Part shown: positions 14,035 to 44,008 of the stretch, piece after piece
Numbering within the stretch: position 1 is the first letter of the stretch
Layout of the letters: every line of letters starts with the position of its first letter
Assembly (NCBI GenBank): GCA_017961145.1
Contig: JAGCXU010000054.1
Location: 1 to 52,012, forward strand
Origin: Bacteroidaceae bacterium
GTDB taxonomy: Bacteria > Bacteroidota > Bacteroidia > Bacteroidales > Bacteroidaceae
Length of the DNA stretch: 52,012 nt
Reading direction: 5' to 3'
Position numbers and translations under genes: made by a program
The notes under the pieces: generated by a model
The model's input: only the letters and a program-made list of their open reading frames with translations
What the model was told of the DNA's origin: nothing
Database searches by the model: none

Positions 14035-14556
14035 ATGAGACATAATAAGAAATTCAACCATTTGGGTCGTACTGCATCCCACAGAGCAGCTATGTTGAGC
14101 AACATGGCCGTGTCTCTGATCATGCACAAAAGAATCACTACGACCCTCGCCAAGGCAAAGGCCTTGAAGAAGTATGTAGAGCCTCTTATCACTAAGTCGA
14201 AGGAGGATACTACCAATTCACGTCGTGTCGTGTTCAGCTATTTGCAGGACAAGCACGCCATCACGGAACTCTTTACGGTAATCTCTCAGAAGGTTGCTGA
14301 CCGTCCTGGTGGCTACACTCGCATCATTAAGACGGGTTTCCGTGCAAGTGATGCTGCTCCCATGTGCTTCATCGAGCTTGTTGACTTCGATGAAAACATG
14401 GCTAAGACTGCTAAGAAGGCAAAGCGCACACGTCGTTCTTCTAAGAAGGCTACTACTGCTCCTGCAGCTGAAGAGGCTGCTCCAGTAGCTGAAGCTGAGG
14501 CACCTGCAGAAGAAGTTGCAGAGACTGCAGCTCCTGCAGAAGAAGCTCAAGAATAA
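14035..14556 (+). CDS. rplQ: 50S ribosomal protein L17 (bL17) with an acidic Ala/Glu/Pro-rich C-terminal extension
   Basis: Begins [17 protein letters not shown]. The last ~50 residues are low-complexity K-rich then A/E/P-rich sequence. Confidence 0.96.
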
Positions 14557-14574
14557 TTCTAAATTGCAATAATG

Positions 14575-14612
14575 AAGCCGCTTCGTCCGTGAAGGATGGA
14601 GCGGCTTTTTGT
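14575..14612 (+). terminator. Rho-independent terminator of the r-protein/alpha operon
   Basis: AAGCCGCT (14575-14582) pairs with AGCGGCTT (14600-14607) and is followed by a T-run. Confidence 0.75.
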
Positions 14613-14718: not shown

Positions 14719-14827
14719 TGCATGCTATCGGATGTGCCTTGATGTGCTTCTGCAAGTTCAGGTAATGAAAAAGGTTTTCGAGATAAAGAATTATGCCGGA
14801 TGACTTGGGCCTTTCGTTTCTTTTTCG

Positions 14828-14835
14828 TACCTTTG
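14828..14835 (+). promoter_or_regulatory. Bacteroidetes-type -7 box (TACCTTTG) upstream of the GH92 gene
   Basis: Matches TAnnTTTG 34 nt upstream of the ATG at 14869. No clean -33 TTTG was seen. Confidence 0.4.
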
Positions 14836-14868
14836 TCCCAAATTTTCTACTATAAACAAGCTATAACG

Positions 14869-17034
14869 ATGAAAAGTAAATTTTTCCTTCTTGGCCTGAT
14901 GTTTGCCGTTACGGCTCAGGCTGAAAACTTTGCGCAGTACGTTAATCCTGTCATTGGCACGGGCGACCACGGACATGTCTTCGTGGGTGCTAATGTGCCT
15001 TTTGGTATGGTGAATGCTGGTCCGACGCAGATTGAGACGGGTTGGGACTGGTGTTCCGGCTACCATGAAAGTGGCAAGAAGATTATCGGTTTTGCCCAGA
15101 TGCATTTGAGCGGAACTGGTTGTGGCGACTTGGGAGACATCGGTCTGATGCCTGTCTATGAGGACGTGGAACTCACTCGCGAGGGTATTGCCAGTGAATA
15201 CCGTCATGAAACGGAAATCTTAGCACCTGGCTATTACCGTGTTATCCTCGACCGTTTCCACATTCAGGCAGAGGTGACAGCCACTGAACGTACCGCTCTC
15301 TATCGCTTCACTTTCCCTCGTGGCAGTAACAACGCTCGCATCATCATCGACTTGGAGAATACCATTGGCGATGATGCCCGCGACACTCGCGTAGTTCCTG
15401 TCGACGACTACACTTTGATGGGCTATCGTCGCAGCCATGGTTGGGCAAACGATCAGATTGTTTACTTCTGCATGAAGTTCAGCAAGCCCATCCACAACTG
15501 GCTGAGTGAAGGGCCAGATGCGAAGTATGGGATAGCGACTTTCGAAGTTGGACCTGGTGACGACGTGATGGTCAAAGTGGCTCTCTCACCCACAAGCGAG
15601 GCAAACGCACTTCTCAACATGAATGCCGAGCAGCCTAATGGCTTCGACTTCGATGGTGTTGCCGAGGCCGCTACTGAGGCTTGGAATCAGCAACTCTCTC
15701 GCATCAAAGCCACTTTCCGTACTGAACGCGAACGTACTATCTTCTACACGGCAATGTATCACTATATGGTAGCGCCCCAACTCTGGAACGATGTAACGGG
15801 TGATTATATGGGTGCGGACCTGAAGGTTCATCGTGGAGCCGATTATAATACGCTCACAACTTGGAGCCTTTGGGACACTTATCGTGCTGCCCATCCTCTG
15901 GCAACCATCATCATGCCTGACCGTATGCGCGACTATGCCAAGACGATGCTTGCCATCTATCGCGAATGGGGCGAGTTGCCAGTATGGCATCTTGTAAGTA
16001 ACGACACCTATTGCATGGTGGGCGAGCCTGCCGTTCCAGTTCTGGCAGATATCATTCTGAAGGGTGAAGCAGGCGATATCGACATCGATGAAGCCTACGA
16101 AGCAGTTTGTGCAAGCATGCTTCCCACAGAATATGCAAAGGTTCGTCGAGTTCCTCTTCGTGGTAAAGACTATCTTGCAGAACTCGGTTATCTGCCTTAC
16201 GACGGTCGCGAAGGTGAAGTCGTTGGCAAGAGCATGGAGTACTTCATCGCATCTTGGGCAGCAGCTCAGCTCGCAGGAAAACTTGGTCACAAGGAAGACA
16301 GCGTTCGTTTCTACGAGATTAGCATGAACTACAAGAAACTCTACGACCGTCGTGTCAACGTAATGCGTGCACTCGATATGAAAGGAGAGTTCCGTCCGTT
16401 GCCTCCCAACTTCAATCCAAATCAGCAGACACGCGACTATACCGAAGGCAATCCCTGGCAGTACACGTTCCTCGTACCTCATGATGTGAAAGGACTTGCT
16501 GAGGTGATGGGTGGAGATAAGGCTCTCGACAAGCGTCTGGACGACTTGCTGGCAGCCAGCAGCGACCTTGGTGCAGGTGCTGCACCCGACATCTCAGGCC
16601 TTATCGGTCAGTATGCTCATGGCAATGAACCCAGCCATCACATCCTCTATATGTACAATTATGTAGGTCAACCTCGTAAGGCGCAGAAGTGGATTCGTCA
16701 GGTAATGGATGAACTCTATACTGACCAGCCAGCAGGTCTTTGCGGCAATGAGGACGTCGGCCAGATGTCGGCTTGGTACATCCTCTCAGCCCTTGGCTTC
16801 TATCAGGTTGAGCCTTGTGGTGGTGTTTATCAGCTTGGTTCGCCCATCGTGGAAGAGGCTGTTATTCCTGTCGGCGAGGGTAAGACTTTCACCATCCGTA
16901 CTCACGACGGCAGCGACAAAGCCATCTATGTCAAGAAGTATGTGCTGAACGGCAAACCGCTCAAGGGCACAACGATCACTCACGAGCAGATTATGGCTGG
17001 TGGTACGCTGGATGTGTATATGACAGCGAAGTAA
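14869..17034 (+). CDS. GH92 family alpha-mannosidase (secreted)
   Basis: The ATG at 14869 gives the signal peptide MKSKFFLLGLMFAVTAQA. GTGDHGHVFVGANVPFGMVNAGPTQ and the later HGNEPSHH motif are typical of GH92. The track start at 14800 is judged an upstream extension. Confidence 0.9.
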   Translation: MKSKFFLLGLMFAVTAQAENFAQYVNPVIGTGDHGHVFVGANVPFGMVNAGPTQIETGWDWCSGYHESGKKIIGFAQMHLSGTGCGDLGDIGLMPVYEDVELTREGIASEYRHETEILAPGYYRVILDRFHIQAEVTATERTALYRFTFPRGSNNARIIIDLENTIGDDARDTRVVPVDDYTLMGYRRSHGWANDQIVYFCMKFSKPIHNWLSEGPDAKYGIATFEVGPGDDVMVKVALSPTSEANALLNMNAEQPNGFDFDGVAEAATEAWNQQLSRIKATFRTERERTIFYTAMYHYMVAPQLWNDVTGDYMGADLKVHRGADYNTLTTWSLWDTYRAAHPLATIIMPDRMRDYAKTMLAIYREWGELPVWHLVSNDTYCMVGEPAVPVLADIILKGEAGDIDIDEAYEAVCASMLPTEYAKVRRVPLRGKDYLAELGYLPYDGREGEVVGKSMEYFIASWAAAQLAGKLGHKEDSVRFYEISMNYKKLYDRRVNVMRALDMKGEFRPLPPNFNPNQQTRDYTEGNPWQYTFLVPHDVKGLAEVMGGDKALDKRLDDLLAASSDLGAGAAPDISGLIGQYAHGNEPSHHILYMYNYVGQPRKAQKWIRQVMDELYTDQPAGLCGNEDVGQMSAWYILSALGFYQVEPCGGVYQLGSPIVEEAVIPVGEGKTFTIRTHDGSDKAIYVKKYVLNGKPLKGTTITHEQIMAGGTLDVYMTAK

Positions 17035-17073
17035 AAGAATAAAAGGTAAAAAGACAATAAATACTATACGACT

Positions 17074-18504
17074 ATGAAGAAACTCATATTTGCCCTGTTG
17101 ATGAGCGCGCCAATGTCCGCCTTCAGCAATACGAACTACACTATACCTGAGCCTGCAAAGAAGCAGCAAGTGGCAGTACAGAGCACCATCAAGGACCTCC
17201 GTCCTGCGCCTGAAAAGCGTCTTTTCCGTAGCGAATCAGTCGAGAAGCAAATCCTTGACCTCAAGCAGAAACTTACTTCTATTGATCCTAAATTGTATTG
17301 GATGTTCGTCAACTGCTTCCCAAATACGCTCGATACGACTGTTTGGTACAGCAATGAAAGTGGTGACGACGACACATTCGTCATTACAGGCGATATCGAG
17401 GCAATGTGGCTTCGCGATAGTGCCGCACAGGTTTGGCCCTATCTGCGCTATGTGAATCAGGACGAGCCGCTGCGTCATCTTATTCGTGGCGTTATCCGTC
17501 GTCAGTTCGCTTGCATCCTTATCGATCCCTATGCCAATGCCTTCAACATTAAACCAAAAGATGGCGAATGGCAGAAGGACGAGACAGACATGAAGTTGGA
17601 ACTGCATGAAAGGAAGTACGAAATTGACTCTCTATGCTATCCCTTGCGCCTTGCTTACGCTTATTGGCAGAAGACTGGCGACAGCAGCATCTTTGACGAG
17701 ACTTGGCTCAAAGTGGTGCGTGCCACACTCGATGTGTTCCGCGACCAACAGAACTGGAATGGATATAAGACGAACTATCACTTCCGTCGTCAGACAAAAG
17801 CTTATCACGACACTCGAAGCAACGCGGGTTATGGCCATCCGGGCAAGGCTTGTGGCCTCATTGCCAGTGCTTTCCGTCCCAGCGACGACAGCACAATCTT
17901 CCCTTACCTTGTGCCCTCGAACTTCTTTGCAGTAAGTGTTTTGCGTAAGGCAGCAACCATCTTGCGTTCTGTGAACAAGGAGAAGGTGCTTGCAGGCGAG
18001 TGTGAGCAGATGGCAAGCCAAGTGGAAACTGCCTTGAAGGAATATGCCGTAGTGGAACATCCCAAGTATGGTCCCATCTATGCCTTCGAGGTTGATGGTT
18101 ACGGAAGCTATCTCCTTATGGACGACAGCAATGCTCCCAGCTTGCTCTGCCTGCCTTATTTGACCGACGTCGACATTGACGACCCCATTTATCAGAATAC
18201 GCGCAAGTTCGTTTGGAGTGAGGACAATCCCTACTTCTTCAAAGGAAAGGCCGGCGAAGGCATTGGTGGTCCTCATTGTGGCCTTGATAAGCCTTGGCCC
18301 ATGTCATTGGTTATGAAGGCTTTCACCACTAATGATCGTGCAGAGAAGGAGTGGTGTGTGCAGGAAATCCTTAAGACCGACGGCGGCAAAGGCTTCATGC
18401 ACGAGTCCTTCAACAAGGACGATGCAACGGACTATACACGCAGTTGGTTCGCATGGGCCAATACAATCTTTGGCGAACTCATCGTAGATATGTATGCAGA
18501 ATAA
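17074..18504 (+). CDS. GH125 family exo-alpha-1,6-mannosidase-like protein (formerly DUF1237)
   Basis: Has a signal peptide. TGDIEAMWLRDSAAQVWPY and the overall ~475-aa size are typical of GH125. Confidence 0.85.
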   Translation: MKKLIFALLMSAPMSAFSNTNYTIPEPAKKQQVAVQSTIKDLRPAPEKRLFRSESVEKQILDLKQKLTSIDPKLYWMFVNCFPNTLDTTVWYSNESGDDDTFVITGDIEAMWLRDSAAQVWPYLRYVNQDEPLRHLIRGVIRRQFACILIDPYANAFNIKPKDGEWQKDETDMKLELHERKYEIDSLCYPLRLAYAYWQKTGDSSIFDETWLKVVRATLDVFRDQQNWNGYKTNYHFRRQTKAYHDTRSNAGYGHPGKACGLIASAFRPSDDSTIFPYLVPSNFFAVSVLRKAATILRSVNKEKVLAGECEQMASQVETALKEYAVVEHPKYGPIYAFEVDGYGSYLLMDDSNAPSLLCLPYLTDVDIDDPIYQNTRKFVWSEDNPYFFKGKAGEGIGGPHCGLDKPWPMSLVMKAFTTNDRAEKEWCVQEILKTDGGKGFMHESFNKDDATDYTRSWFAWANTIFGELIVDMYAE

Positions 18505-26360: not shown

Positions 26361-26414
26361 AAAACATAGGGTGTTGATTTCTATGCTATTGCATAAGCCA
26401 ACACCCTATGTTTT
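26361..26414. terminator. Bidirectional terminator (perfect 16-bp stem)
   Basis: AAAACATAGGGTGTTG (26361-26376) pairs with CAACACCCTATGTTTT (26399-26414). It has flanking A/T runs and lies between convergent genes. Confidence 0.85.
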
Positions 26415-26431
26415 TTAGCCTAACATTTATC

Positions 26432-27649
26432 CTATTGAGTTTGCCAAGTCAAGCCACTGACACTTACAGAAGCCTCTGCCGACTTAATACAAGTGCCACC
26501 TACTTTACCTCCTTTTGAGCCATAGTTTCTCTGCGAAACGAAAAGTCTGCCGGCAGTCACAGTCAGGTTCCCCTTTATTTTGAGTCCATAGCAAAACGAA
26601 TCATCCTCATTCTCGTCTTCATAAACGCCACCAGTGGCGTGAATTGTTATTGTGGTTATGTTGGAGTCCTGATTCACTAACATGTCTTGGTCGACGGAGA
26701 TGCCTTTACTTCCTGCACCTGAAGCATAAATATCGAGCGTGCCACCAGTGATGATTAGGTCGACAGGTGCTTTGATAGCCTTCGTGGTAACTGCTTTAGC
26801 GGTGATGTTAAGGGTGCCTCCATTGATGAACATCATGCCGTTGTCTTCCTTGTCAGGATCGGGCGTGACGTCATCGTCGAGCGTCTTTATCTCTACCTGT
26901 ACGCCTTCGCCACCCTGTCCGCTGATGTCCAAGGTGCCACCGTCCATAAGGAAATACTGACCGATGTGCATGCCATCGGATACTGCTTTGTTGACGGTTA
27001 TGCTGCCTGTGCTTTTCTTTATCTGCAGATATTCCTTCGTAGCGATAGCGTGTTTGGTGTTGCCTGAAACAGTAAGCGAACCACTGCCTGATACCTCGAG
27101 GTGTCCCTTGCAGTAGAGGGCTGCCTTTTGTTCGCCGCCAGGAGCGTCGACAAGGAAGTTTTCGGTGCCTGGGTTGAGAATGAGGTCGACGCGTTTACCG
27201 CATTGGATGTCGATGGCAGCGCCTTCGTCGCTTGTCAAGTTGAGTCCGTTCAGGTAGAACTTACACTTGAGAGCTCCTTCGTATACTAACGAGCCTTGAG
27301 TACTTTCGCCCTGCAAGACGAACTCCAATTCGCTTTTTGTGTTAGTGCTGATAATGTTGACGTGAGCCCCTTCGACGGTGTATGTGACGTTTGGCGTATG
27401 GCCAAGGTCGACGTAAGCCGTGTCTCCTGCAAAAGTGACAGAAACTGTGTGAACTACTGTTATGCTATCAATTTGGATGCATTCGTATGTTGAATCGGCA
27501 ACAGAGAAGGTTTCTCCATCTTCGGAGAACAGAATTTCTGAGGTGGTAAAGCGTTTGCTCTCGCCTTCTTTCCAGACGCGAATCTGTTCTTGGGCCTGCA
27601 TGACGGAGGCAAAGAGCATGAATGAAAATATAAGATAAAGTTTTTTCAT
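26432..27649 (-). CDS. Secreted Cthe_2159-like beta-helix (carbohydrate-binding domain-containing) protein
   Basis: Signal peptide from the ATG at 27649 (MKKLYLIFSFMLFASVMQA). The repetitive LNGLNLTSDEGAAIDIQ...SGSGSLTVSGNTKHAI...DGGTLDISG pattern is typical of this family. Confidence 0.7.
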   Translation of the reverse strand: MKKLYLIFSFMLFASVMQAQEQIRVWKEGESKRFTTSEILFSEDGETFSVADSTYECIQIDSITVVHTVSVTFAGDTAYVDLGHTPNVTYTVEGAHVNIISTNTKSELEFVLQGESTQGSLVYEGALKCKFYLNGLNLTSDEGAAIDIQCGKRVDLILNPGTENFLVDAPGGEQKAALYCKGHLEVSGSGSLTVSGNTKHAIATKEYLQIKKSTGSITVNKAVSDGMHIGQYFLMDGGTLDISGQGGEGVQVEIKTLDDDVTPDPDKEDNGMMFINGGTLNITAKAVTTKAIKAPVDLIITGGTLDIYASGAGSKGISVDQDMLVNQDSNITTITIHATGGVYEDENEDDSFCYGLKIKGNLTVTAGRLFVSQRNYGSKGGKVGGTCIKSAEASVSVSGLTWQTQ

Positions 27650-27664
27650 TATCTTGTTTAAGTT

Positions 27665-27746
27665 TAATAGTTTCAAACATCCCTAGTGATGTTGTCAAAC
27701 TTCACACGTGAAGTTTGCCAATTACCCTAGTGATGTTTTGCGATGA
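27665..27746 (+). repeat. 22-bp-unit family copy (three degenerate units)
   Basis: CCCTAGTGATGTT occurs at 27681 and again at 27725 (44 bp apart). The central unit is CACGTGAAGTTTGCCAATTA. Confidence 0.65.
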
Positions 27747-27766
27747 CCTGTGCAATTCGTCCGAAG

Positions 27767-28213
27767 TTACTTCCTGACCTTGATGGCCTTGCCGTTCATG
27801 TTGACAACATATACGCCGGCAGGCAGGTTGTCGAGGCTGATATTCGCTCCTTCTTTAACTTGTGCAATGCTGACGAGAGCGCCATTCATGCTATGGATGC
27901 GCAACAGTCCGTCGCCTTTGACTGCAAGTGTGCCATCCTTATAGGTAAGGTTCTCTTCCTGCTCAGGCAAAGCCTTAATGGCATCGGGCGAATCTGTGAA
28001 TGTGATTTTCTCAAGGCCGGATAGAGCAAAGGAGTGTGTCTCTCCGTTAGTGGTAGTCACCTTGATGCAGTCGTCCTGGAAGAAGATTCTCTTTACGATA
28101 GGCAGCGAAATGTTCTGTTCTGTGTTGCTATAGGTAATGGTAAGGGATTTGTCCGCCATCATTCCTGTGCTGAAAGCGAGCAGTAAAACTGCGAAAAAGA
28201 TCTTTGTCTTCAT
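27767..28213 (-). CDS. Small secreted protein with a T9SS (Por) type-A C-terminal sorting domain
   Basis: Has a signal peptide. The C-terminal ~70 aa (...IHSMNGALVSIAQVKEGANISLDNLPAGVYVVNMNGKAIKVRK) matches the T9SS CTD pattern. Confidence 0.75.
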   Translation of the reverse strand: MKTKIFFAVLLLAFSTGMMADKSLTITYSNTEQNISLPIVKRIFFQDDCIKVTTTNGETHSFALSGLEKITFTDSPDAIKALPEQEENLTYKDGTLAVKGDGLLRIHSMNGALVSIAQVKEGANISLDNLPAGVYVVNMNGKAIKVRK

Positions 28214-28254
28214 AATTCTGTTATGTTTTTATGCTTTTATATGCTTGTTATTGT

Positions 28255-29130
28255 TCAGAAGCTGTATTTGTAGCCGATGTTGATAGCGTGCAGCCTGTCG
28301 TGGAGCCGAACGGTCTCTCGCACGTTTTCGTCCTCCTCGATGTCGTACATGTCGAACGTAATCAGGTATGAGAGCGACACTTCGTTGTGCTTGCGGAACT
28401 TATATCCGCATCCAACGGCAGTACGAATCTTCTGCAAGAGCATGTGGTCGCCCACGCTGATACTGTTGTGGAACTCAGCCGAAACGAACGGAGAGAAGGG
28501 GCAACGCTTCTTGTCATACTCAAGTTTAAGGCGTGAACGCAATACCTGATCGGTAAGAGTCGGATAATTCTTCATCTCCGTTTTGTCTATTATATATGTT
28601 GCCTCCTCAATGATAGGATTCCAATCTTCGTCCCAATCGACAATCTCCTTCATGTGGTTCTCGAGATGAACGAGCCTTTCGACGTTCCTTTCTCTGCGAT
28701 GTGTCAACTGATAACGTTCTCTAAGGGAAATCTTGAGCCATTGCCAGAGTTTTATGCTGCCAGTAGCCTCTGCACTAAAACGATGGCGAGGATACCAGTT
28801 GTCGGTAAGGAGTTTATAGCCTCGAGTCCAATCGTCGGAGCCGACTTCTCCTTCACTCTTGTCTTTGAATGCGTTCTTCTCAGAGTAGAGGAAACTGTAG
28901 TTGAGGCCAAACTTGAGGTACTTGTTCAACTTGTAACTCGTGCCAAGTCCTGCGGAGAAACGTGCTTTGTTCTGGGCACGATACTCCAAGTCCAGGCCGA
29001 CATCCCAGTTCTTCGTGATGGCTTTCTCTATGCCTATCTCCGACCAGATGCCGACTTCATCGTTCTCTTGCGCAAACAGAGGAATCGCAAGGAGCAACGA
29101 GAGAATAAGTGTGGTTTGACGCAATTTCAT
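28255..29130 (-). CDS. DUF2490-like outer-membrane beta-barrel protein
   Basis: Has a signal peptide, alternating amphipathic strands and a terminal aromatic residue (YKYSF). It resembles the DUF2490 family from memory. Confidence 0.55.
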   Translation of the reverse strand: MKLRQTTLILSLLLAIPLFAQENDEVGIWSEIGIEKAITKNWDVGLDLEYRAQNKARFSAGLGTSYKLNKYLKFGLNYSFLYSEKNAFKDKSEGEVGSDDWTRGYKLLTDNWYPRHRFSAEATGSIKLWQWLKISLRERYQLTHRRERNVERLVHLENHMKEIVDWDEDWNPIIEEATYIIDKTEMKNYPTLTDQVLRSRLKLEYDKKRCPFSPFVSAEFHNSISVGDHMLLQKIRTAVGCGYKFRKHNEVSLSYLITFDMYDIEEDENVRETVRLHDRLHAINIGYKYSF

Positions 29131-29840
29131 GAACGAGGCATTTTAATCATTCCTTCTATGCTGCTGCCGCGGTCGAAAGGATAGTCATAGAAGATGCGAA
29201 TCATGCACGAATCCTTCAGGAAATCGATAGTACCTACCTCCAGGCGTTCTATCTTCAGACCAGTGCGCTTCTCCAAGTCTGCTTTCAACTCTTCGCGTTT
29301 ATCTGGAGTGACGAGAGAGATGTTATCGTAAAGAATATATTTGCTGCAGTTTGAGCTGACCAGCCTACTGCTCTCGAAGAGCCATGCCATGCCCAAGAAG
29401 ACAAGGTTGACGAAGACTATCGTCACCAGGCCGAAGCCATCCCAATAGTCGGCCTTAGGATGATACTCGGCACGACTCAGGGCGTTCACGACACTTACAG
29501 CAATAAGCATGAAAAGATATGTCATCTCGCGAATGGGCACGGCTTCCGTGCGGAAACGCATAATGCCGAAGATGGCAAAGAGACCCATGGCAGCTCCAAG
29601 GTTCATGCCGTCGCCTTCCATTAAGCTAACCAAGAGGAAGATGCTCACGGACATTAGGATAAAGATGAACATATAATCGCGGCGTCGGCTGCGAGGGTAA
29701 TAATAATAACGCGCTATCACTGTCACAACAATCAAGTTGATGATGAAGCGCATTACCAGTGAAATGAAGTGCTGGGGGTCGAGCAGTGTCAAACCTATCG
29801 CATTACCCAGCTGATAGTTAATGTCGTTAAGGAATTCCAT
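29127..29840 (-). CDS. DUF4956-like integral membrane protein
   Basis: 237 aa with 4-5 TM helices, the motif FGIMRFRTE and a soluble C-terminal domain. There is a 4-nt ATGA overlap with the downstream gene. Confidence 0.6.
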   Translation of the reverse strand: MEFLNDINYQLGNAIGLTLLDPQHFISLVMRFIINLIVVTVIARYYYYPRSRRRDYMFIFILMSVSIFLLVSLMEGDGMNLGAAMGLFAIFGIMRFRTEAVPIREMTYLFMLIAVSVVNALSRAEYHPKADYWDGFGLVTIVFVNLVFLGMAWLFESSRLVSSNCSKYILYDNISLVTPDKREELKADLEKRTGLKIERLEVGTIDFLKDSCMIRIFYDYPFDRGSSIEGMIKMPRS

Positions 29841-29867
29841 ATAAATGATGTTTAGTTTTTATTTTTC

Positions 29868-30659
29868 TCAATTAGCTTGCAACTTCCGTCCTGCCAGTTT
29901 GCTGAGCTTGACCAGTCGCAGTTTGAACCTGTTTTGTTTGAGGCCTTTGTTCGTCAAAACCGAGCCGATGCAATACTTGCTGAAGCCAAGCGGCTTGATG
30001 CGAAGCTGGCGAAGGATGTCGAGTACAGGACTATAGACGTTACCATCGCGCTTGAGTTCGATGATGACTAGAGGTCCGACATTGGCATCCTTGTCTGTCT
30101 CAAAGTTGTGGAAGTGCACATCGTAGTCAATAGTCAGGCGTTCAGTCTTGCCGTAGTTTACAAGCGTAATGCGGTGGAACTGGTTGCGAACCGTAGGATG
30201 TATGTCAGCCAAACCAAGGTGCACTTTCTCCTGCAAGAACTCTTCGTTTCCATTTTCGCCTGTTATCTCTTGACTGGGAACGGCCACGCGTTTCTTCTTT
30301 GTTCTGCCGTGATTGTTCTTCGTCTTAACCTCCAAGAAGGTATCGTCGCTATCCATGTAAGTCCTGACACGAACCTTCTGCCTTGGGGCACGGCCGTTAT
30401 GATGCTCCAGATAGAACAGATGTCCGTCAGTATCCCAATAGGTTGTCATGTAGTTTGCAATCTTAGCACCGAAATGAAACTGCGCATAGTATTTCCCTTG
30501 AGCCATTTCCAATAGGCGGGCAAGGGTTTCCTTGTTCGTCACGAACTTGGTGTCCGTGCGATTCATAAGACGAATCTCCTTCATCTCGTCCAATGTGATT
30601 GGCTTCAGATTGGCTAGTAATTCGTCTATGCGAGCATCAATATCCATACTTTTTTGCAT
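29868..30659 (-). CDS. VTC-domain (polyphosphate polymerase domain / CYTH-like triphosphate tunnel) protein
   Basis: RTDTKF, RVRTY, LEVKTK and IIELKRD are charged beta-strand motifs typical of bacterial VTC-domain proteins. The track start at 30671 is a TTG. The ATGs at 30659 or 30647 are more likely, so the start is uncertain. Confidence 0.7.
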   Translation of the reverse strand: MQKSMDIDARIDELLANLKPITLDEMKEIRLMNRTDTKFVTNKETLARLLEMAQGKYYAQFHFGAKIANYMTTYWDTDGHLFYLEHHNGRAPRQKVRVRTYMDSDDTFLEVKTKNNHGRTKKKRVAVPSQEITGENGNEEFLQEKVHLGLADIHPTVRNQFHRITLVNYGKTERLTIDYDVHFHNFETDKDANVGPLVIIELKRDGNVYSPVLDILRQLRIKPLGFSKYCIGSVLTNKGLKQNRFKLRLVKLSKLAGRKLQAN

Positions 30660-30730
30660 TCTACGCGACAAATATAGGCTTTTTTATGCAAATATCGTTG
30701 CGTAACGATGTGTTTTTAACAAAAAATCAC

Positions 30731-33150: not shown

Positions 33151-33639
33151 ATGGAAAACGTCAGCTTCCGAACCACGGTTTTGCCGTTGAGCGATAAGCT
33201 CTTCCGACTTGCTCTCCGCATTACAATGAACAAGGCAGAGGCCGAAGATGTGGTGCAAGACACGCTTCTGAAAGTGTGGGAGTGTCGCGAAGAATGGGAG
33301 CAGATAAACAACCTCGAAGCCTTTGCAATCGCGACTTGCAGGAACAGGGCTCTCGATGTCGTGAAACGAGCTGGCCGTAACACTGAGAAACTCGATGAAA
33401 TGGTTCATTTTAGCAGCCGGACACCTCATGAACAAATGGAGGCTCACGAGCAAATCTCTCTCATAAATCGTCTCATGGATGACTTGCCCGAAGTGCAGCG
33501 AACCATCATGTTGCTGCGAGACATAGAAGGCAAAACTTACCAAGAGATAGCACAAATGCTCGACATCAGCGAGACACAAGTTAAGGTCTATCTGCATAGA
33601 GCCAGAACAAAGATAAAAGGATGGATTACAAATATATAG
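33151..33639 (+). CDS. ECF-type RNA polymerase sigma-70 family factor
   Basis: 162 aa with region 2 (DVVQDTLLKVW) and region 4 (YQEIAQMLDISETQVKVYLHRAR). Confidence 0.88.
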   Translation: MENVSFRTTVLPLSDKLFRLALRITMNKAEAEDVVQDTLLKVWECREEWEQINNLEAFAIATCRNRALDVVKRAGRNTEKLDEMVHFSSRTPHEQMEAHEQISLINRLMDDLPEVQRTIMLLRDIEGKTYQEIAQMLDISETQVKVYLHRARTKIKGWITNI

Positions 33640-34103
33640 AGCAACTGCTGGAGCGCTACTGGGAATGCCAGACTAGCCTTGAAGAGGAAGCTATCCTGCG
33701 CAACTTCTTCCGTCAGGAAGATGTGCCTGCAAGTCTGCTCCCTTATCGTCAGTTCTTCAATGAACAAGACGAAATGGCAGAGGAACATCTGGACAAAGAC
33801 TTCGCCGACAAGATGCTTCGACTGGTTGGAGAAGATGCTCCCGTTCATGTCTGCAAGGCTCGTCGCTTAACCTTTGTGCGTCGCCTCCGTCCTTTCTACA
33901 GGGCTGCAGGACTTATCGCAATCCTTCTGACCATCGGTAATGCAGCTCATCAGAGTTTTACCGATGAAGATGAAGTTGCTCCTCAAATGGCAGATGGCAT
34001 TGTTGTGGACAGTTTGCAGCAAATCACTATCGGTCAGCCAGAACAGCAGTCTGCTGAACTCACAACACAACCAATCGACACAATCAATACACTTCCAAGA
34101 TAA
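33621..34103 (+). CDS. Putative membrane-anchored anti-sigma factor
   Basis: Overlaps the sigma gene by 19 nt and has a single TM helix (FYRAAGLIAILLTIGNAA). The call is by context. Confidence 0.55.
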   Translation: MDYKYIEQLLERYWECQTSLEEEAILRNFFRQEDVPASLLPYRQFFNEQDEMAEEHLDKDFADKMLRLVGEDAPVHVCKARRLTFVRRLRPFYRAAGLIAILLTIGNAAHQSFTDEDEVAPQMADGIVVDSLQQITIGQPEQQSAELTTQPIDTINTLPR

Positions 34104-36617: not shown

Positions 36618-38363
36618 TTATTTTAATTGCTCTGAAGTTCTCACATAGGCTTTGATTGTCATGCATTCTCCTTGCAAAGGTTTGATGGTGTAGCGACCGA
36701 TGCAGGCTGGTATGATGAAGGTCTCGGCATAGTGCACCTCGAATGGTTCGAACTTGCCTTCTGGACTCTCAATGAGGGCTGCTTCGCCATCAACGAGGTT
36801 GAGGACGTTTACGCCACCATTTGTGTTGTGTTCAACAGGTTGGCTGAAAGTGTGCCTTCGTGTCTCGATGAACTCGTTTGGGTGTAGTCCGGTCCTTTCC
36901 TCTTTGATGCCATTCTCGTCGCTCAGTACTTCGAAGTGATTGGCAATCTGCGACTTGACGAAAGGTGTGGTGCGGTCCCATTGAATGACATACTTGCCGC
37001 GCTCTACATTGATGGGACGGGGTTTGCCGTCGAGTCCGAGTCGTGCCCAGTCCCAAAGTTTGAAGGTAAAGATACTGGGCGTAGAACTTATCTCGAGCAC
37101 CATGCTGTCGTGGCCGGAACAATGAATGGTACCTGCAGGAATAAGGTAGTGGTCGTGCTTCTTGGCTGGCAATTTGTTGACGTACTTTTCTGCATCAAAC
37201 AGTATCTCGCCTCTTTGAGCAGCTCGCAAGTCTTCAATCATCTGCACCTTGTCAACGCCTTCCTTCAAGCCGAGATAGACGACTGCGTTCTCGGCTGCAT
37301 CGAGCAGATAATAGCTCTCATCCTGAGTGTAAGGCAGCCCGAACTCTCTTTGAGCAAACTCGTTGGTGGGGTGCACTTGCAGGCTGAGGTTGCCGCCCTG
37401 CATAGTGTCGAGGAAGTCGAAACGAATGGGGAAACTCTTGCCAAAGCGATGCCAAACCTGCTGACCAAGCAATTCGCGAGTGTGAGCCAGGACAACATCT
37501 TGCGATGGCAACTCGAAGAGTGTTCCATCGGCTTCGAGATAAAGGCTGTTCTCTTCTGGTACGCAATCGAAGCACCAGCCATAGTTCTGCTCTTCTCGAG
37601 GCAGGTCGCACACCTCCTTCATCCATTGTCCACCCCAAGGTGCGGGGTCGAAGAAGGGAACGACGCGGAAAGGCTTGTGAGCAGTCCGCTCCAGTCCTTG
37701 TCGCATTTGGGCATCGGTAATCATCTTGGGCTCATTTCGCTGGTTCGAGTCAATCCAGAACTGGATGCGACCCTGCTGCATCAGCTCGTCTTTGTAGTGG
37801 TCGATGATGTTCCAGTCGTTGAAGTAGCCGCGTTTATATTGAACGGAAGGACTGTCCTCGCGATTGTCAATGCCGAGAGCCTTCACTTCGTGCCTGCGAA
37901 AGCGCTGCTGGATTTCCCAACGAGCCATGTCGGCGTAAGCCATTGACCATTGACCATTGACCATTGACCATTTTTCGGCCACGAAGGCTGCTCCTGTGCC
38001 TATGATAACGACGGGCTCCCCGATTTTGGATTTTGAATTTATTAATTTTGAATTATCAAAATATTCGTGAAGACGAATGTTCGACATGTATCCGAAGAGC
38101 ACATCATCCGTCATAAATCGCTCGGTGAGTTGCCGAATTTCCTCTTCCGGTCGCATCAAAGAGCGGGTTTCGATGACCTTTCTGCCTGTTTTTGCAAAGG
38201 CATTGATGAAATCTTCCTCGTAAGTGCCCGGGTAGAGGTCGATTGCCCAGACTGGTTCGTCGGCCCAAGCCTCGGAAAGTGTGCTGATAATGTTGTCCCA
38301 GCCACAAATAATGTTGCCTTCTATGTGTGTAGAGGGCTTTTTGTCGTAGTTGCTTTTTCTCAT
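36618..38363 (-). CDS. Long (581 aa) class I mannose-6-phosphate isomerase-like protein
   Basis: PAPWGGQWMKE and FPIRFDFLDTMQGGNLSLQVHP are cupin/PMI motifs. It is first in an operon with the ROK kinase and the MFS transporter. Confidence 0.75.
   Translation of the reverse strand: MRKSNYDKKPSTHIEGNIICGWDNIISTLSEAWADEPVWAIDLYPGTYEEDFINAFAKTGRKVIETRSLMRPEEEIRQLTERFMTDDVLFGYMSNIRLHEYFDNSKLINSKSKIGEPVVIIGTGAAFVAEKWSMVNGQWSMAYADMARWEIQQRFRRHEVKALGIDNREDSPSVQYKRGYFNDWNIIDHYKDELMQQGRIQFWIDSNQRNEPKMITDAQMRQGLERTAHKPFRVVPFFDPAPWGGQWMKEVCDLPREEQNYGWCFDCVPEENSLYLEADGTLFELPSQDVVLAHTRELLGQQVWHRFGKSFPIRFDFLDTMQGGNLSLQVHPTNEFAQREFGLPYTQDESYYLLDAAENAVVYLGLKEGVDKVQMIEDLRAAQRGEILFDAEKYVNKLPAKKHDHYLIPAGTIHCSGHDSMVLEISSTPSIFTFKLWDWARLGLDGKPRPINVERGKYVIQWDRTTPFVKSQIANHFEVLSDENGIKEERTGLHPNEFIETRRHTFSQPVEHNTNGGVNVLNLVDGEAALIESPEGKFEPFEVHYAETFIIPACIGRYTIKPLQGECMTIKAYVRTSEQLK
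37940..37972 (-). repeat. In-frame heptanucleotide tandem repeat, (CCATTGA) x4.7 on the plus strand, inside the PMI-like CDS
   Basis: Read directly. It encodes KWSMVNGQWSM at about residues 131-141. Confidence 0.9.
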
Positions 38364-41968: not shown

Positions 41969-42160
41969 TGAAGTTTGCCGATGAGGCGTACTAACTTTGT
42001 CAACTTCACACGTGAACTTGCTCAACTTCGCTGCCTTCGTTGGCAAACTTAACGTGTCATGTTTGCAATTTTAACGTGTGATGTTTGCAATCTTTGCCTG
42101 TGAAGTTTCTCGATATCGCCTGAAATGGTGCGCGTTTTGCTATGTGCAGTTTGCAATCCG
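41964..42160 (+). repeat. Largest array of the 22-bp-unit family (about seven phased units)
   Basis: Phased units start at 41986, 42008, 42030, 42052, 42074 and 42096. The best are ACGTGTCATGTTTGCAATTTTA and ACGTGTGATGTTTGCAATCTTT. A further GCAGTTTGCAATCC lies near 42147. Confidence 0.8.
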
Positions 42161-42235
42161 AATACTTTAATAAAAATTTTTATTTTACGTTGTAAAATAA
42201 TTGTCAAATTATTTGGAATTTCATGAGAAATGTTG

Positions 42236-42243
42236 TATCTTTG
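42236..42243 (+). promoter_or_regulatory. -7 box TATCTTTG with a -33 TTTG (42212-42215) for pepC
   Basis: TTTG-N20-TATCTTTG lies 31 nt upstream of the ATG at 42274. Confidence 0.55.
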
Positions 42244-42273
42244 CACTCGAAATAATAAATAAATAAAATAGCA

Positions 42274-43641
42274 ATGAAAAAGGCAATTATCTACACATTG
42301 GCAATGATGTTCTGCATGCTGGCAAGTGCGCAGACAAGCATTACTCCCGAAGTGCTCAAGCAGCTCGAAGGCAGCTATACCGGTACGCCTGCCGAGAAGG
42401 CTCTGCGCAATGCCATCAGCAACGTTGGCATCGCCAAGATGGCCATCAACCAGGAGAATGCAGGTGCCAAGGATAAAAACTTCGGTATCGAAGTGAAGAA
42501 TACGGGTATCACCGACCAGAAGAGTAGTGGTCGCTGCTGGCTCTTTACGGGGCTTAATGTGCTGAGAGGCAGGGCGATGAAGGAGCTCGACACGAAGAAT
42601 TTCGTCCTCAGTCAGTGCTACCTCTTCTTCTTCGACCAGCTCGAGAAGAGCAACCTCTTCCTGCAAGGCATCATCGACACCCGCAAGCAGCCCATCGATA
42701 GCGAGATGGTACGCTGGCTCTTCCAGCATCCGCTCTCCGACGGCGGCACCTACACTGGTGTGGCCGACCTTGCCACAAAGTATGGCGTCGTACCTGCCGA
42801 CATTATGCCCGAAACCTATGTCAGCAACAGTACAAGCGAGTTCTGCGGTCACCTGAAACGGAAACTGCGCGAGTTTGGCATCACCCTTCGCGAAAAGGGC
42901 GAGGCAGGCATGAGCGAGAAGCAGTTGCAAGCCCTCAAGGTGGAGCAATTGGGCACCGTCTACAAGATGCTCGTCATGGCCTACGGTGTGCCTCCCACAA
43001 AGTTCACTTGGAAAGACAAGACCTATACGCCGCAAGAGTTCTTCAAGGCTTACTGCATCGAGGATGGCGAGGATCTCAACAAGGACTATGTCATGCTCAT
43101 GAACGACCCCAGCCGCCCCTTTGGTAAGGTCTATGAGATTGACTACGACCGCCATGTCTATGATGGGCACAACTGGCTCTACGTCAACCTGCCCATCGAG
43201 GAGCTGGAGAGCATCGCCATCGCTTCGCTGAAGGACAGTTGCCAGATGTATTTCAGCTGCGACGTTGGCAAGTTCCTCGATCGCAGTGTGGGCATTGCCG
43301 ACATCAACAACTTCGACTACGGAAGCCTCCTCGGAACGACCTTCGGCATGAACAAGAAGCAGCGCATCCAGACCTTCGACAGCGGCAGCACCCATGCCAT
43401 GACCTTGATGGCGGTGGACCTCGATGGCGAGGGCAAGGCGAAGAAGTGGAAGGTGGAGAACAGCTGGGGTTCGGACAGCGGACAGAACGGCTACATCATC
43501 ATGACCGACGAGTGGTTCCGCGAGTACATGTTCCGCGTCGTAGTGAACCGCAAGTTCTGTCCTGAATCTGTCCTCGAGTTGCTCAAGCAGAAGCCAGTTC
43601 GCTTGCCGGCATGGGACCCGATGTTTAGCGAGGAGGATTAA
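42274..43641 (+). CDS. pepC: Aminopeptidase C / bleomycin hydrolase-type C1B cysteine peptidase
   Basis: 455 aa, with the active-site context QKSSGRCWLFTGLNVLR and HAMTLMAVD ... ENSWG. Confidence 0.88.
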   Translation: MKKAIIYTLAMMFCMLASAQTSITPEVLKQLEGSYTGTPAEKALRNAISNVGIAKMAINQENAGAKDKNFGIEVKNTGITDQKSSGRCWLFTGLNVLRGRAMKELDTKNFVLSQCYLFFFDQLEKSNLFLQGIIDTRKQPIDSEMVRWLFQHPLSDGGTYTGVADLATKYGVVPADIMPETYVSNSTSEFCGHLKRKLREFGITLREKGEAGMSEKQLQALKVEQLGTVYKMLVMAYGVPPTKFTWKDKTYTPQEFFKAYCIEDGEDLNKDYVMLMNDPSRPFGKVYEIDYDRHVYDGHNWLYVNLPIEELESIAIASLKDSCQMYFSCDVGKFLDRSVGIADINNFDYGSLLGTTFGMNKKQRIQTFDSGSTHAMTLMAVDLDGEGKAKKWKVENSWGSDSGQNGYIIMTDEWFREYMFRVVVNRKFCPESVLELLKQKPVRLPAWDPMFSEED

Positions 43642-43642
43642 T

Positions 43643-44008
43643 ATGGAAACAACCAGACAAAACAAGATAGCACGCCTCATTCAAAAGGAGCTGAGCGACA
43701 TCTTCCAGAAGCAGACAAGTGCGATGAGAGGCGTTTTGGTGAGCGTCAGTGCTTGTCGCATCAGCCCGGATCTGAGCGTCTGTCGCGTCTATCTCAGCGT
43801 CTTCCCAAGCGAGAAGGCCGAAGAGATAGTGCAGAACATCAATACTAACCAGCGACAGGTTCGCTACGAGCTTGGCACAAGAGTCGGCAAGCAGCTTCGC
43901 ATCATCCCTGAACTCAAGTTCTTCGTGGACGATTCATTAGACTACGTTGAGCATATCGACGAACTGCTGAAAGCCTCTCCTGGCCCCTCTCAGGGAGAGG
44001 AAAACTAA
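43643..44008 (+). CDS. rbfA: Ribosome-binding factor A
   Basis: 121 aa, beginning METTRQNKIARLIQKELSDIF. The last ~12 codons run into a G/C hairpin element. Confidence 0.88.
   Translation: METTRQNKIARLIQKELSDIFQKQTSAMRGVLVSVSACRISPDLSVCRVYLSVFPSEKAEEIVQNINTNQRQVRYELGTRVGKQLRIIPELKFFVDDSLDYVEHIDELLKASPGPSQGEEN

Follow-up and report, generated by a model that had tools for sequence, protein, structure and literature searches.

The 52,012-nt window analyzed here, from a Bacteroidaceae contig, carries five open reading frames (ORFs), all on the minus strand at 26432-30671, that encode a VTC-domain protein, a DUF4956 inner-membrane protein, a DUF2490 outer-membrane β-barrel, a small protein with a type IX secretion system (T9SS) sorting domain (the mini-protein), and a Cthe_2159-family parallel β-helix protein. 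Our best reading of this operon, put forward tentatively, is that it encodes a split bacterial VTC machine that makes polyphosphate and exports it across the Gram-negative envelope. To our knowledge, all bacterial polyphosphate biology to date rests on the polyphosphate kinases PPK1 and PPK2. It is a more doubtful proposition that the operon represents the first bacterial VTC-type, PPK-independent polyphosphate synthase and exporter, one that threads its product through a basic outer-membrane barrel to interchangeable surface modules.

An earlier note on this DNA had recognized the minus-strand set of five genes, had assigned the proteins to families, and had arranged them in a series running from the cytoplasm through the inner and outer membranes to the cell surface. 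The ORFs lie where it had placed them, all five families that it named (VTC, DUF4956, DUF2490, T9SS type A and Cthe_2159) passed the curated hidden Markov model cut-offs, and the predicted locations agree with the series.

Gene order is conserved in related loci

We collected related loci from 80 genomes at species level, whose VTC proteins share 51-91% identity with that of the window, and from six metagenome contigs, using a 25-sequence VTC subset for the search because the 114-sequence alignment was too diverse. The order VTC-DUF4956-DUF2490-(mini)-β-helix, on the same strand, was found in 57 of the 65 loci that had enough downstream sequence, so that the co-conservation the earlier note had wished to see examined is indeed present. 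Because this order recurs while the genes flanking the operon differ between lineages, the arrangement is far beyond chance. It extended to a locus whose VTC protein was only 33% identical (L087), in which VTC, DUF4956, DUF2490 and Cthe_2159 genes were still in place.

The operon occurs widely among gut and rumen Bacteroidota. The nearest genome matches to the window were uncultured rumen Prevotellaceae/Bacteroidaceae metagenome-assembled genomes (MAGs) at 90-91% identity. Three loci, from MAGs titled Opitutae (L012), Methanomethylophilaceae archaeon (L057) and Christensenellaceae (L062), held a Bacteroidales-type operon with VTC identities of 51-76%; their presence there is most likely due to binning contamination of those MAGs.

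The VTC-domain protein keeps the residues required in yeast Vtc4

The first gene (29868..30659, minus strand) encodes a 263-residue candidate polyphosphate polymerase with a predicted Vtc4-type triphosphate-tunnel fold. Its match to Pfam VTC (PF09359; E = 1e-28, 101 bits, cut-off 23) covered 231 of 235 model positions and was the sole Pfam domain detected; the protein has no signal peptide, no transmembrane or other hydrophobic segment, and no SPX domain. An exhaustive search returned relatives forming 3,613 clusters at 50% identity. Twenty positions of the tunnel type were invariant across 114 diverse relatives, nearly all of them occupied by Arg, Lys, Glu, Asp or Tyr. A single-sequence search of the Protein Data Bank (PDB) with the VTC protein gave no match; only the family profile, built from the 114-sequence alignment, found the catalytic domain of yeast Vtc4 (3g3q, E = 1.7e-5).

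In the alignment with Vtc4, K38 corresponds to K200, R97/R99 to R264/R266, K112 to K281, E201 to E426, and S227-K228 to S457-K458, and F161-x-R163 falls on Y359-x-R361 when aligned via Vtc2. Motifs in the C-terminal half agree between the two proteins (iiElK with vlEvKl, and fSKyc with fSKfi). Residues K38, R97, R99, K112, R163, E201 and K228 were invariant in the 114 relatives, and S227 was nearly so. Yeast Vtc4 K200, R264, R266, K281, R361, E426, S457 and K458 are each needed for polyphosphate, and K458 is the one residue separating catalytic Vtc4 from the inactive Vtc2/3, which lack it (bioRxiv 10.1101/2023.01.27.525886); the standard dead Vtc4 mutant is R264A/R266A/E426N (PMC9911596). Because the residues that yeast Vtc4 needs for polyphosphate, including the equivalent of K458, are conserved, the bacterial VTC family looks like a catalytic subunit, with two caveats, a Tyr to Phe substitution and an Asp ahead of the catalytic Lys. 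The analogy with yeast VTC that the earlier note had drawn is strengthened by this conservation.

DUF4956 is the predicted membrane partner

Because the VTC protein has neither a transmembrane nor an SPX part of its own and DUF4956 is its neighbor, it would be expected to need a membrane partner. The DUF4956 gene (29127..29840, minus strand) encodes a 237-residue inner-membrane protein (PF16316; E = 4.5e-49, 166.9 bits, cut-off 30.6) with five predicted transmembrane helices. AlphaFold2 (AF2) secondary structure indicated a cytoplasmic C-terminal β-α-β-β domain at residues 165-218 (window 29187-29348), and hydropathy analysis pointed to a strongly positive cytoplasmic loop, RYYYYPRSRRRD. At the membrane interface, R95, R97, R104 and E105 are conserved in the motif GLFAIFGIMRxRTExVPIREMTYLF, and all four are kept even in Deinococcus and Aminobacter homologues.

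A streptococcal DUF4956 homologue has been described as four transmembrane helices plus an ACT-like domain (PMC12345266), and the layout of five helices followed by an α/β domain agrees with that description. With Pfam, even at E <= 1, we could not reproduce the similarity to MgtC that the same study proposed. A single-sequence PDB search with DUF4956 returned chance matches only.

The DUF2490 barrel has a predicted basic lumen

The DUF2490 gene (28255..29130, minus strand) encodes a 291-residue outer-membrane β-barrel that has a signal peptide and ends in YKYSF (PF10677; E = 4.5e-20, 72.6 bits, cut-off 29.8). The family (TC 1.B.81) is classed as a putative porin without established function (PMC4827864). 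The AF2 model was a barrel of ~14 strands with a predicted local distance difference test (pLDDT) score of 82. Foldseek searches with this model returned generic outer-membrane barrels only, including FadL, OmpG, NalP and NanC, at template modeling (TM) scores of 0.37-0.48. The highest target-normalised match was to the acidic-sugar porin NanC (TMt 0.55), and the matches of lowest root-mean-square deviation (rmsd) were the autotransporter translocators NalP (TM 0.44-0.47, rmsd ~8 Å) and AaaA; CdiB was also returned.

To characterize the lumen, each strand was split into a hydrophobic and a polar face. Thirteen well-conserved inward residues were basic (R51, R57, K67, K73, R115, R117, R137, R139, R198, R200, K234, R236 and K244), and only one well-conserved inward residue was acidic (E219). 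In the model, such a lumen has the pattern that would be expected of an anion- or polyanion-conducting pore.

The mini-protein and the β-helix share an N-domain

The last two genes encode exported proteins. The mini-protein (27767..28213, minus strand; 148 residues) has a signal peptide, an N-domain at ~27989-28153 and a T9SS type A C-terminal sorting domain at ~27770-27919, which scored 27.6 bits with TIGR04183 (cut-off 23) and 22.5 with Pfam Por_Secre_tail, under the cut-off of 27. The β-helix protein (26432..27649, minus strand; 405 residues) has a type I signal peptide, an N-domain at ~27425-27589 and a β-helix at ~26531-27340. It matched Pfam Cthe_2159 (PF14262) with E = 9.6e-40 and 136.9 bits (cut-off 25.8), and its closest solved structure was Cthe_2159 itself (4peu/4phb, E = 2.6e-10).

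The mini-protein had been described as little more than a sorting signal, a description that no longer holds: its conserved N-domain of ~55 residues is homologous to the N terminus of the β-helix protein (hhalign probability 87.6%, E = 3.5e-6). In 30 control alignments with shuffled columns the probability was at most 0.6%. Direct BLASTP of the mini-protein against the β-helix protein was not significant, and profile-profile comparison alone gave significance.

The window β-helix protein has no lipobox and no T9SS tail, only the Sec-type (type I) signal peptide. When we compared loci with and without a mini gene, two arrangements emerged. Where the mini gene was present, the β-helix protein carried the N-domain and lacked a lipobox in 53 of 55 loci; where it was absent, the β-helix protein was a lipoprotein in 11 of 13, with the Cys followed by an acidic run (for example CQNDDTD, CISDDSD or CGKEETE). 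The mini gene and the lipoprotein form were thus nearly mutually exclusive (Fisher p = 3.7e-9). The Bacteroidota lipoprotein export signal drives surface exposure, and the acidic runs after the Cys fit that signal (PMC5080379). The simplest reading of these sequences is that the β-helix acts at the cell surface, either via its own lipid anchor or via a T9SS- or dockerin-anchored mini-protein that would hold it through the shared N-domain. The earlier description of the β-helix as surface-anchored therefore stands in part: the window protein has no anchor of its own, yet the mini-protein and the lipoprotein variants elsewhere point to a surface site.

Among 58 mini-protein orthologues, 41 matched TIGR04183 and three had Dockerin_1 instead. 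Where a mini gene was missed by phmmer, the 400-550 nt gap encoded a protein of 120-165 residues with the same ~55-residue N-domain and a variable C-terminal module. The dockerin-tailed forms lie in the Bacteroidales-type loci L051 (12371-12778), L052 (12507-12935) and L057 (12507-12908), the first two supported by Pfam (E = 4.6e-10 and 8.4e-11, respectively) and the third by motif only; their sequences would imply a cohesin-type anchoring partner in those species. Longer β-helix paralogues (560-980 residues) carried no T9SS tail, so they supply no fusion evidence tying the mini-protein to the β-helix, and no T9SS component genes were identified among the scanned ORFs of the window. In one Prevotella-like lineage (L001-L004 and L006), the β-helix gene is followed at ~14123-14605 by a gene for a cysteine-rich lipoprotein of 145-160 residues (CCNKCDKKEGCACDTCKCDPCECGK... 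in L001), which is absent from the window.

VTC-DUF4956 is the recurrent core in distant loci

Ten distant VTC loci, from Bacteroidota, Deinococcus and Aminobacter, were sufficiently long to judge, and DUF4956 adjoined VTC in nine of them, the exception being L098. The same pair was present in L118-L121, which were found independently with a Cthe_2159 query, and was confirmed by Pfam in L120. What recurs is thus the VTC-DUF4956 core, which in Bacteroidota is usually accompanied by an outer-membrane barrel.

The partners of this core vary. A Deinococcus plasmid carries CotH, VTC and DUF4956, and Aminobacter plasmids carry an S8 peptidase, DUF4956, VTC and a phytase-like esterase. In the Bacteroidota locus L095 (3760-9131) the order is a T9SS-tailed CotH, a small lipoprotein, VTC, DUF4956 and DUF2490; the CotH kinase is a protein of 904 residues with LTD and fn3 domains ahead of its T9SS tail. 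This diderm CotH locus links the Gram-positive CotH cluster and the DUF2490 architecture. In L091 (6575-11321) the VTC-DUF4956 pair is followed by an Omp85-family barrel (449 residues) and a 467-residue SPOR-domain protein, which replace DUF2490 and the β-helix. Because an unrelated Omp85-type barrel holds the DUF2490 position there, the locus suggests that the requirement is for an outer-membrane barrel in general. DUF2490 occurs without a β-helix in L092, L093 and L096, L097 has only the VTC-DUF4956 pair, and L098 has only VTC. The partners of VTC-DUF4956 are all exported, and several of them act on phosphate esters or transfer phosphate. Pfam found no CotH among the five operon proteins or the 19 flanking ORFs of the window; CotH is present in the relatives L088 and L095.

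The place of the β-helix, which the earlier note had counted as part of the system, depends on the range considered: it is kept in most of the related Bacteroidales loci, but is an optional partner in the wider set of VTC-DUF4956 loci. With Cthe_2159 of Clostridium thermocellum as the query, four of 40 long loci had the arrangement VTC-DUF4956-Cthe_2159, with no barrel and beside a two-component system, in a sediment lineage. The link of Cthe_2159 to VTC-DUF4956 is recurrent, not general.

Regulatory genes flank two of the distant operons. The VTC-DUF4956-Cthe_2159 operon of L120 (6136-11245) is flanked by a HisKA protein with an OmpR-type regulator, and that of L087 (5943-13641) by His_kinase/LytTR plus LiaF-like/LytTR genes, which hints at regulation of an envelope-stress or phosphate type. 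A small exported-protein gene of 120-141 codons abuts the VTC start in L091 (6575-6997), L092 (6572-6997), L093 (6634-6996) and L095 (6599-6997), and overlaps it in L096 (6622-7044). The four abutting genes are of two kinds, a signal-peptide repeat protein and a lipoprotein with a carboxypeptidase-regulatory-like β-sandwich. Both kinds were considered as homologues of the mini-protein and were ruled out (hhalign probability 0.2%).

Comparison with known systems

The eukaryotic VTC complex (Vtc4/Vtc3 or Vtc2/Vtc1) shares with the window system the Pfam VTC domain, the triphosphate- and metal-binding residues, including the Lys specific to Vtc4, and reliance on a multi-helix membrane component. 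The two differ in that the bacterial protein is a stand-alone unit of 263 residues without an SPX sensor or a fused Vtc1-type transmembrane domain, and in that its partner is a five-helix DUF4956 protein with a small α/β domain rather than a Vtc1-type three-helix subunit. The predicted bacterial system has Phe as the counterpart of Tyr359 and further comprises an outer-membrane barrel and surface proteins.

A trio of CotH, a polyphosphate-polymerase domain and DUF4956 has been observed next to Gram-positive pel loci (PMC7112168). The CotH cluster of Streptococcus intermedius (SIR_1592-1594) resembles the window operon in its VTC and DUF4956 pair with an exported partner, and is the sole relative with genetics: deletion of DUF4956 or of CotH reduced aggregation by >50% in sputum medium (PMC12345266). 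The earlier note had known of no experimental characterization of such a bacterial system; this was nearly right, yet deletions of DUF4956, CotH and VTC exist in S. intermedius (PMC12345266). The Gram-positive cluster differs in belonging to a monoderm, in having a secreted CotH and no outer-membrane barrel, and in being linked to pel, whereas the window contains neither CotH nor pel. In Bacteroides thetaiotaomicron, BT3498-BT3499 are adjacent DUF4956 and DUF2490 genes for which an iron-limitation table lists a non-significant change, and our literature searches returned no further data on BT3497-BT3499.

The β-helix protein shares its Pfam family and its parallel β-helix fold with Cthe_2159 of C. 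thermocellum (4peu/4phb), from which it differs by the extra N-domain that it has in common with the mini-protein. Cthe_2159 is reported to bind calcium. It also binds cellulose and polygalacturonic acid and resembles lyases of polysaccharide lyase family 9 (PL9), as summarized in PMC6712302.

Two groups of transport systems also invite comparison. Alginate (Alg8/Alg44-AlgE) and poly-N-acetylglucosamine (PgaCD-PgaA) are exported by synthase-dependent polyanion export systems. These likewise combine a polymerase at the cytoplasmic face, resting on an inner-membrane component, with a dedicated outer-membrane barrel, and AlgE was among the weak fold matches of DUF2490. In contrast to them, the window proteins are unrelated in sequence family, include no glycosyltransferase or periplasmic TPR scaffold, have a smaller barrel, and would handle a polymer that is proposed to be inorganic. 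OprP/OprO are phosphate and pyrophosphate porins, and KdgM/NanC are acidic-sugar porins. Like the DUF2490 model, they are small barrels with many conserved inward Arg and Lys residues, and NanC was among the fold matches, but there is no sequence relationship between these porins and DUF2490.

A proposed model for polyphosphate export and its alternatives

In the model that we favor, the soluble VTC protein would dock on the cytoplasmic face of DUF4956, probably via the DUF4956 C-terminal α/β domain, and would draw phosphate from a nucleoside triphosphate to build a polymer, either polyphosphate or a condensed phosphate closely related to it. The chain would pass through the DUF4956 assembly to the periplasm and leave by the DUF2490 barrel, whose conserved inward residues are basic. 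At the surface the product would meet an accessory module, which in the window would be the Cthe_2159 β-helix held by the T9SS-anchored mini-protein through the shared N-domain, and in other lineages a β-helix surface lipoprotein or a T9SS-secreted CotH kinase.

If this model is true, the surface modules (β-helix, CotH kinase, phytase-like esterase) would bind or use polyphosphate, possibly as an extracellular phosphoryl donor, and the operon could explain how secreted CotH-type kinases are supplied with one. It would also give functions to three large families, bacterial VTC, DUF4956 and DUF2490, and would provide a concrete candidate for bacterial extracellular polyphosphate production and release. 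PPK-independent extracellular polyphosphate has been reported in the Bacillus cereus group, with the synthase and export route unsolved (bioRxiv 10.64898/2026.08.04.742738, a 2026 preprint). The BT3498-BT3499 pair sits in the genetically tractable B. thetaiotaomicron, and the exchange between a T9SS-anchored adaptor and a lipoprotein is relevant to surface-protein display in Bacteroidota.

Several observations weigh against the export model. DUF4956 is only a putative channel, and its AF2 model, built from close homologues only, was poor (pLDDT 55), with usable secondary structure. The β-helix is net acidic (31 Lys and Arg against 50 Asp and Glu), so its binding of a polyanion would need bridging cations, and there is no known route for a tail-less β-helix across the outer membrane. 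In some VTC loci (Aminobacter, L097 and L098) there is no outer-membrane barrel, or no partner at all, and 36 of the 40 long loci around Firmicutes-type Cthe_2159 genes, including that of the founding C. thermocellum gene, are without VTC. The C-terminal half of the VTC/Vtc4 alignment was weak by score, and our literature searches found no biochemical study of any bacterial VTC-domain protein. The S. intermedius VTC deletion has no reported aggregation phenotype (PMC12345266).

Other points raise an alternative that runs in the opposite direction, in which the system scavenges condensed phosphates (polyphosphate, triphosphate or phytate-derived) and the VTC domain is hydrolytic. The β-helix would capture the substrate, DUF2490 and DUF4956 would import it, and the VTC tunnel hydrolase would cleave it in the cytoplasm. 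Most characterized bacterial triphosphate-tunnel (CYTH superfamily) enzymes are hydrolases. In the β-1 motif of the VTC protein, an Asp two residues ahead of the catalytic Lys is kept (R34-x-D36-x-K38), an arrangement that we take to recall the ExExK motif of hydrolytic CYTH enzymes, and hydrolase activity is possible on these sequence grounds. Phe161 occupies the position of Vtc4 Tyr359 in at least 90% of the VTC family, and Y359F reduces polyphosphate in yeast (bioRxiv 10.1101/2023.01.27.525886). The Aminobacter locus includes a secreted phytase-like esterase, the basic barrel lumen fits uptake as well as export, and nothing in our analysis fixes the direction of transport. Nevertheless we regard the scavenging alternative as unlikely. 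The counterpart of K458, a residue specific to catalytic Vtc4, shows no variation in the 114 relatives, and the repeated pairing with secreted CotH kinases is easier to reconcile with supplying a phosphoryl donor than with uptake. Polymer import in Bacteroidota usually relies on TonB-dependent transporters, and the scan of flanking ORFs found no adjacent TonB-dependent transporter, SusCD-type or phosphate-regulon genes.

The pel linkage bears on another possibility, that VTC-DUF4956 is a regulatory or sensing module that tunes the envelope or an exopolysaccharide, with DUF2490 and the pectate-lyase-like β-helix handling an acidic polysaccharide that could be a matrix polymer made by the cell itself or a pectin-like glycan from the diet. 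The Gram-positive pair adjoins pel, and both Pel level and aggregation change in the DUF4956 and CotH mutants but not in the VTC mutant. The polysaccharide binding and PL9 resemblance of Cthe_2159 (PMC6712302), the fold match of DUF2490 to NanC (TMt 0.55) and the two-component systems flanking distant loci are in keeping with it. It is nonetheless quite improbable in our judgment, as the full set of polymerase residues is strongly conserved, which would be unexpected for a mere sensor, and as the core persists with the non-glycan partners CotH, S8 peptidase and phytase-like esterase. Neither the operon nor the adjacent genes include glycosyltransferase, lyase-pathway or polysaccharide utilization locus genes, and Pfam gave no sign of the resemblance to MgtC that had been claimed for DUF4956.

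That DUF2490 is instead a dedicated outer-membrane translocator for the β-helix (of a two-partner or autotransporter-like kind), only loosely coupled to VTC-DUF4956, would agree with the lack of any export signal beyond Sec in the window β-helix, with NalP, AaaA and CdiB among the fold matches and with the Omp85-family barrel standing in for DUF2490 in L091, but is very unlikely given that DUF2490 is kept without a β-helix in L092, L093, L095, L096 and four Bacteroidales loci, that the L091 barrel is likewise without any β-helix, that lipoprotein forms of the β-helix bear their own surface-export motif, that Pfam found no POTRA or two-partner secretion domains in the barrel or β-helix proteins, and that the fold-match TM-scores are low.

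Operon signals and genomic surroundings

The earlier note had also described the spacing and signals of the operon. The gap between the VTC and DUF4956 genes is 27 nt, not the 28 nt that it gave; its other spacings were right, namely the 4-nt ATGA overlap of the DUF4956 and DUF2490 genes at 29127-29130, the 41 nt from the DUF2490 gene to the mini gene, and the 117 nt from there to the β-helix gene, measured to the ATG at 27649 (90 nt to an upstream TTG at 27676). The Bacteroidota-type -7 box that it reported, TATATTTG, is present at 30669..30676 on the minus strand, 10 nt upstream of the VTC start codon, and is the sole intergenic TAnnTTTG in the operon; its agreement with the Bacteroidota -7 consensus TAnnTTTG suggests a promoter role. 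Because the listed TTG start of the VTC ORF (30671) falls within this box, the real start is most likely the ATG at 30659 (or that at 30647), and a start at 30659 fits the length of 259-263 residues seen in most VTC homologues.

The perfect 16-bp terminator described at the distal end of the operon was likewise found, as an inverted repeat (26399-26414 / 26361-26376) with a 22-nt loop. It forms a bidirectional intrinsic terminator at 26361..26414, on both strands, between the β-helix gene and a convergent rmlA-like gene. Predicted folding energies were -34.4 kcal/mol on the minus strand and -27.9 kcal/mol on the plus strand; because the plus-strand reading ends in TTTTTT, the terminator would also serve the rmlA-like gene.

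Between the mini and β-helix genes lies a lineage-specific insertion of ~60 nt (27681..27736, minus strand), in which the 12-nt direct repeat ACATCACTAGGG occurs twice around a 22-nt near-palindrome at 27696-27717. Because it is missing from the closest relatives, L007-L010, this insertion is probably not core to the system; a small element of mobile or repetitive type, or a regulatory site specific to the lineage, would account for it. Rfam found no known RNA element within or around the operon.

We scanned 19 flanking ORFs with Pfam. The neighbors are unrelated to the operon, which is a self-contained unit among them: on one side are GH92 and GH125 mannosidases, cytochrome c biogenesis genes and rmlA, and on the other frr, rsgA, an amino-acid kinase and an extracytoplasmic function (ECF) sigma factor. 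The GH92 and GH125 α-mannosidase genes are adjacent and are followed by a gene for an 831-residue transglutaminase-like protein (14800-18504), which suggests an N-glycan or mannan degradation cluster. Three ORFs had no Pfam match at E <= 1e-5: 36618-38363 (minus strand, 581 residues), 42049-43680 (minus strand, 543 residues) and 33621-34103 (plus strand, 160 residues). The last of these, which shares 19 nt with the end of the ECF sigma-factor gene, probably encodes the cognate anti-sigma factor.

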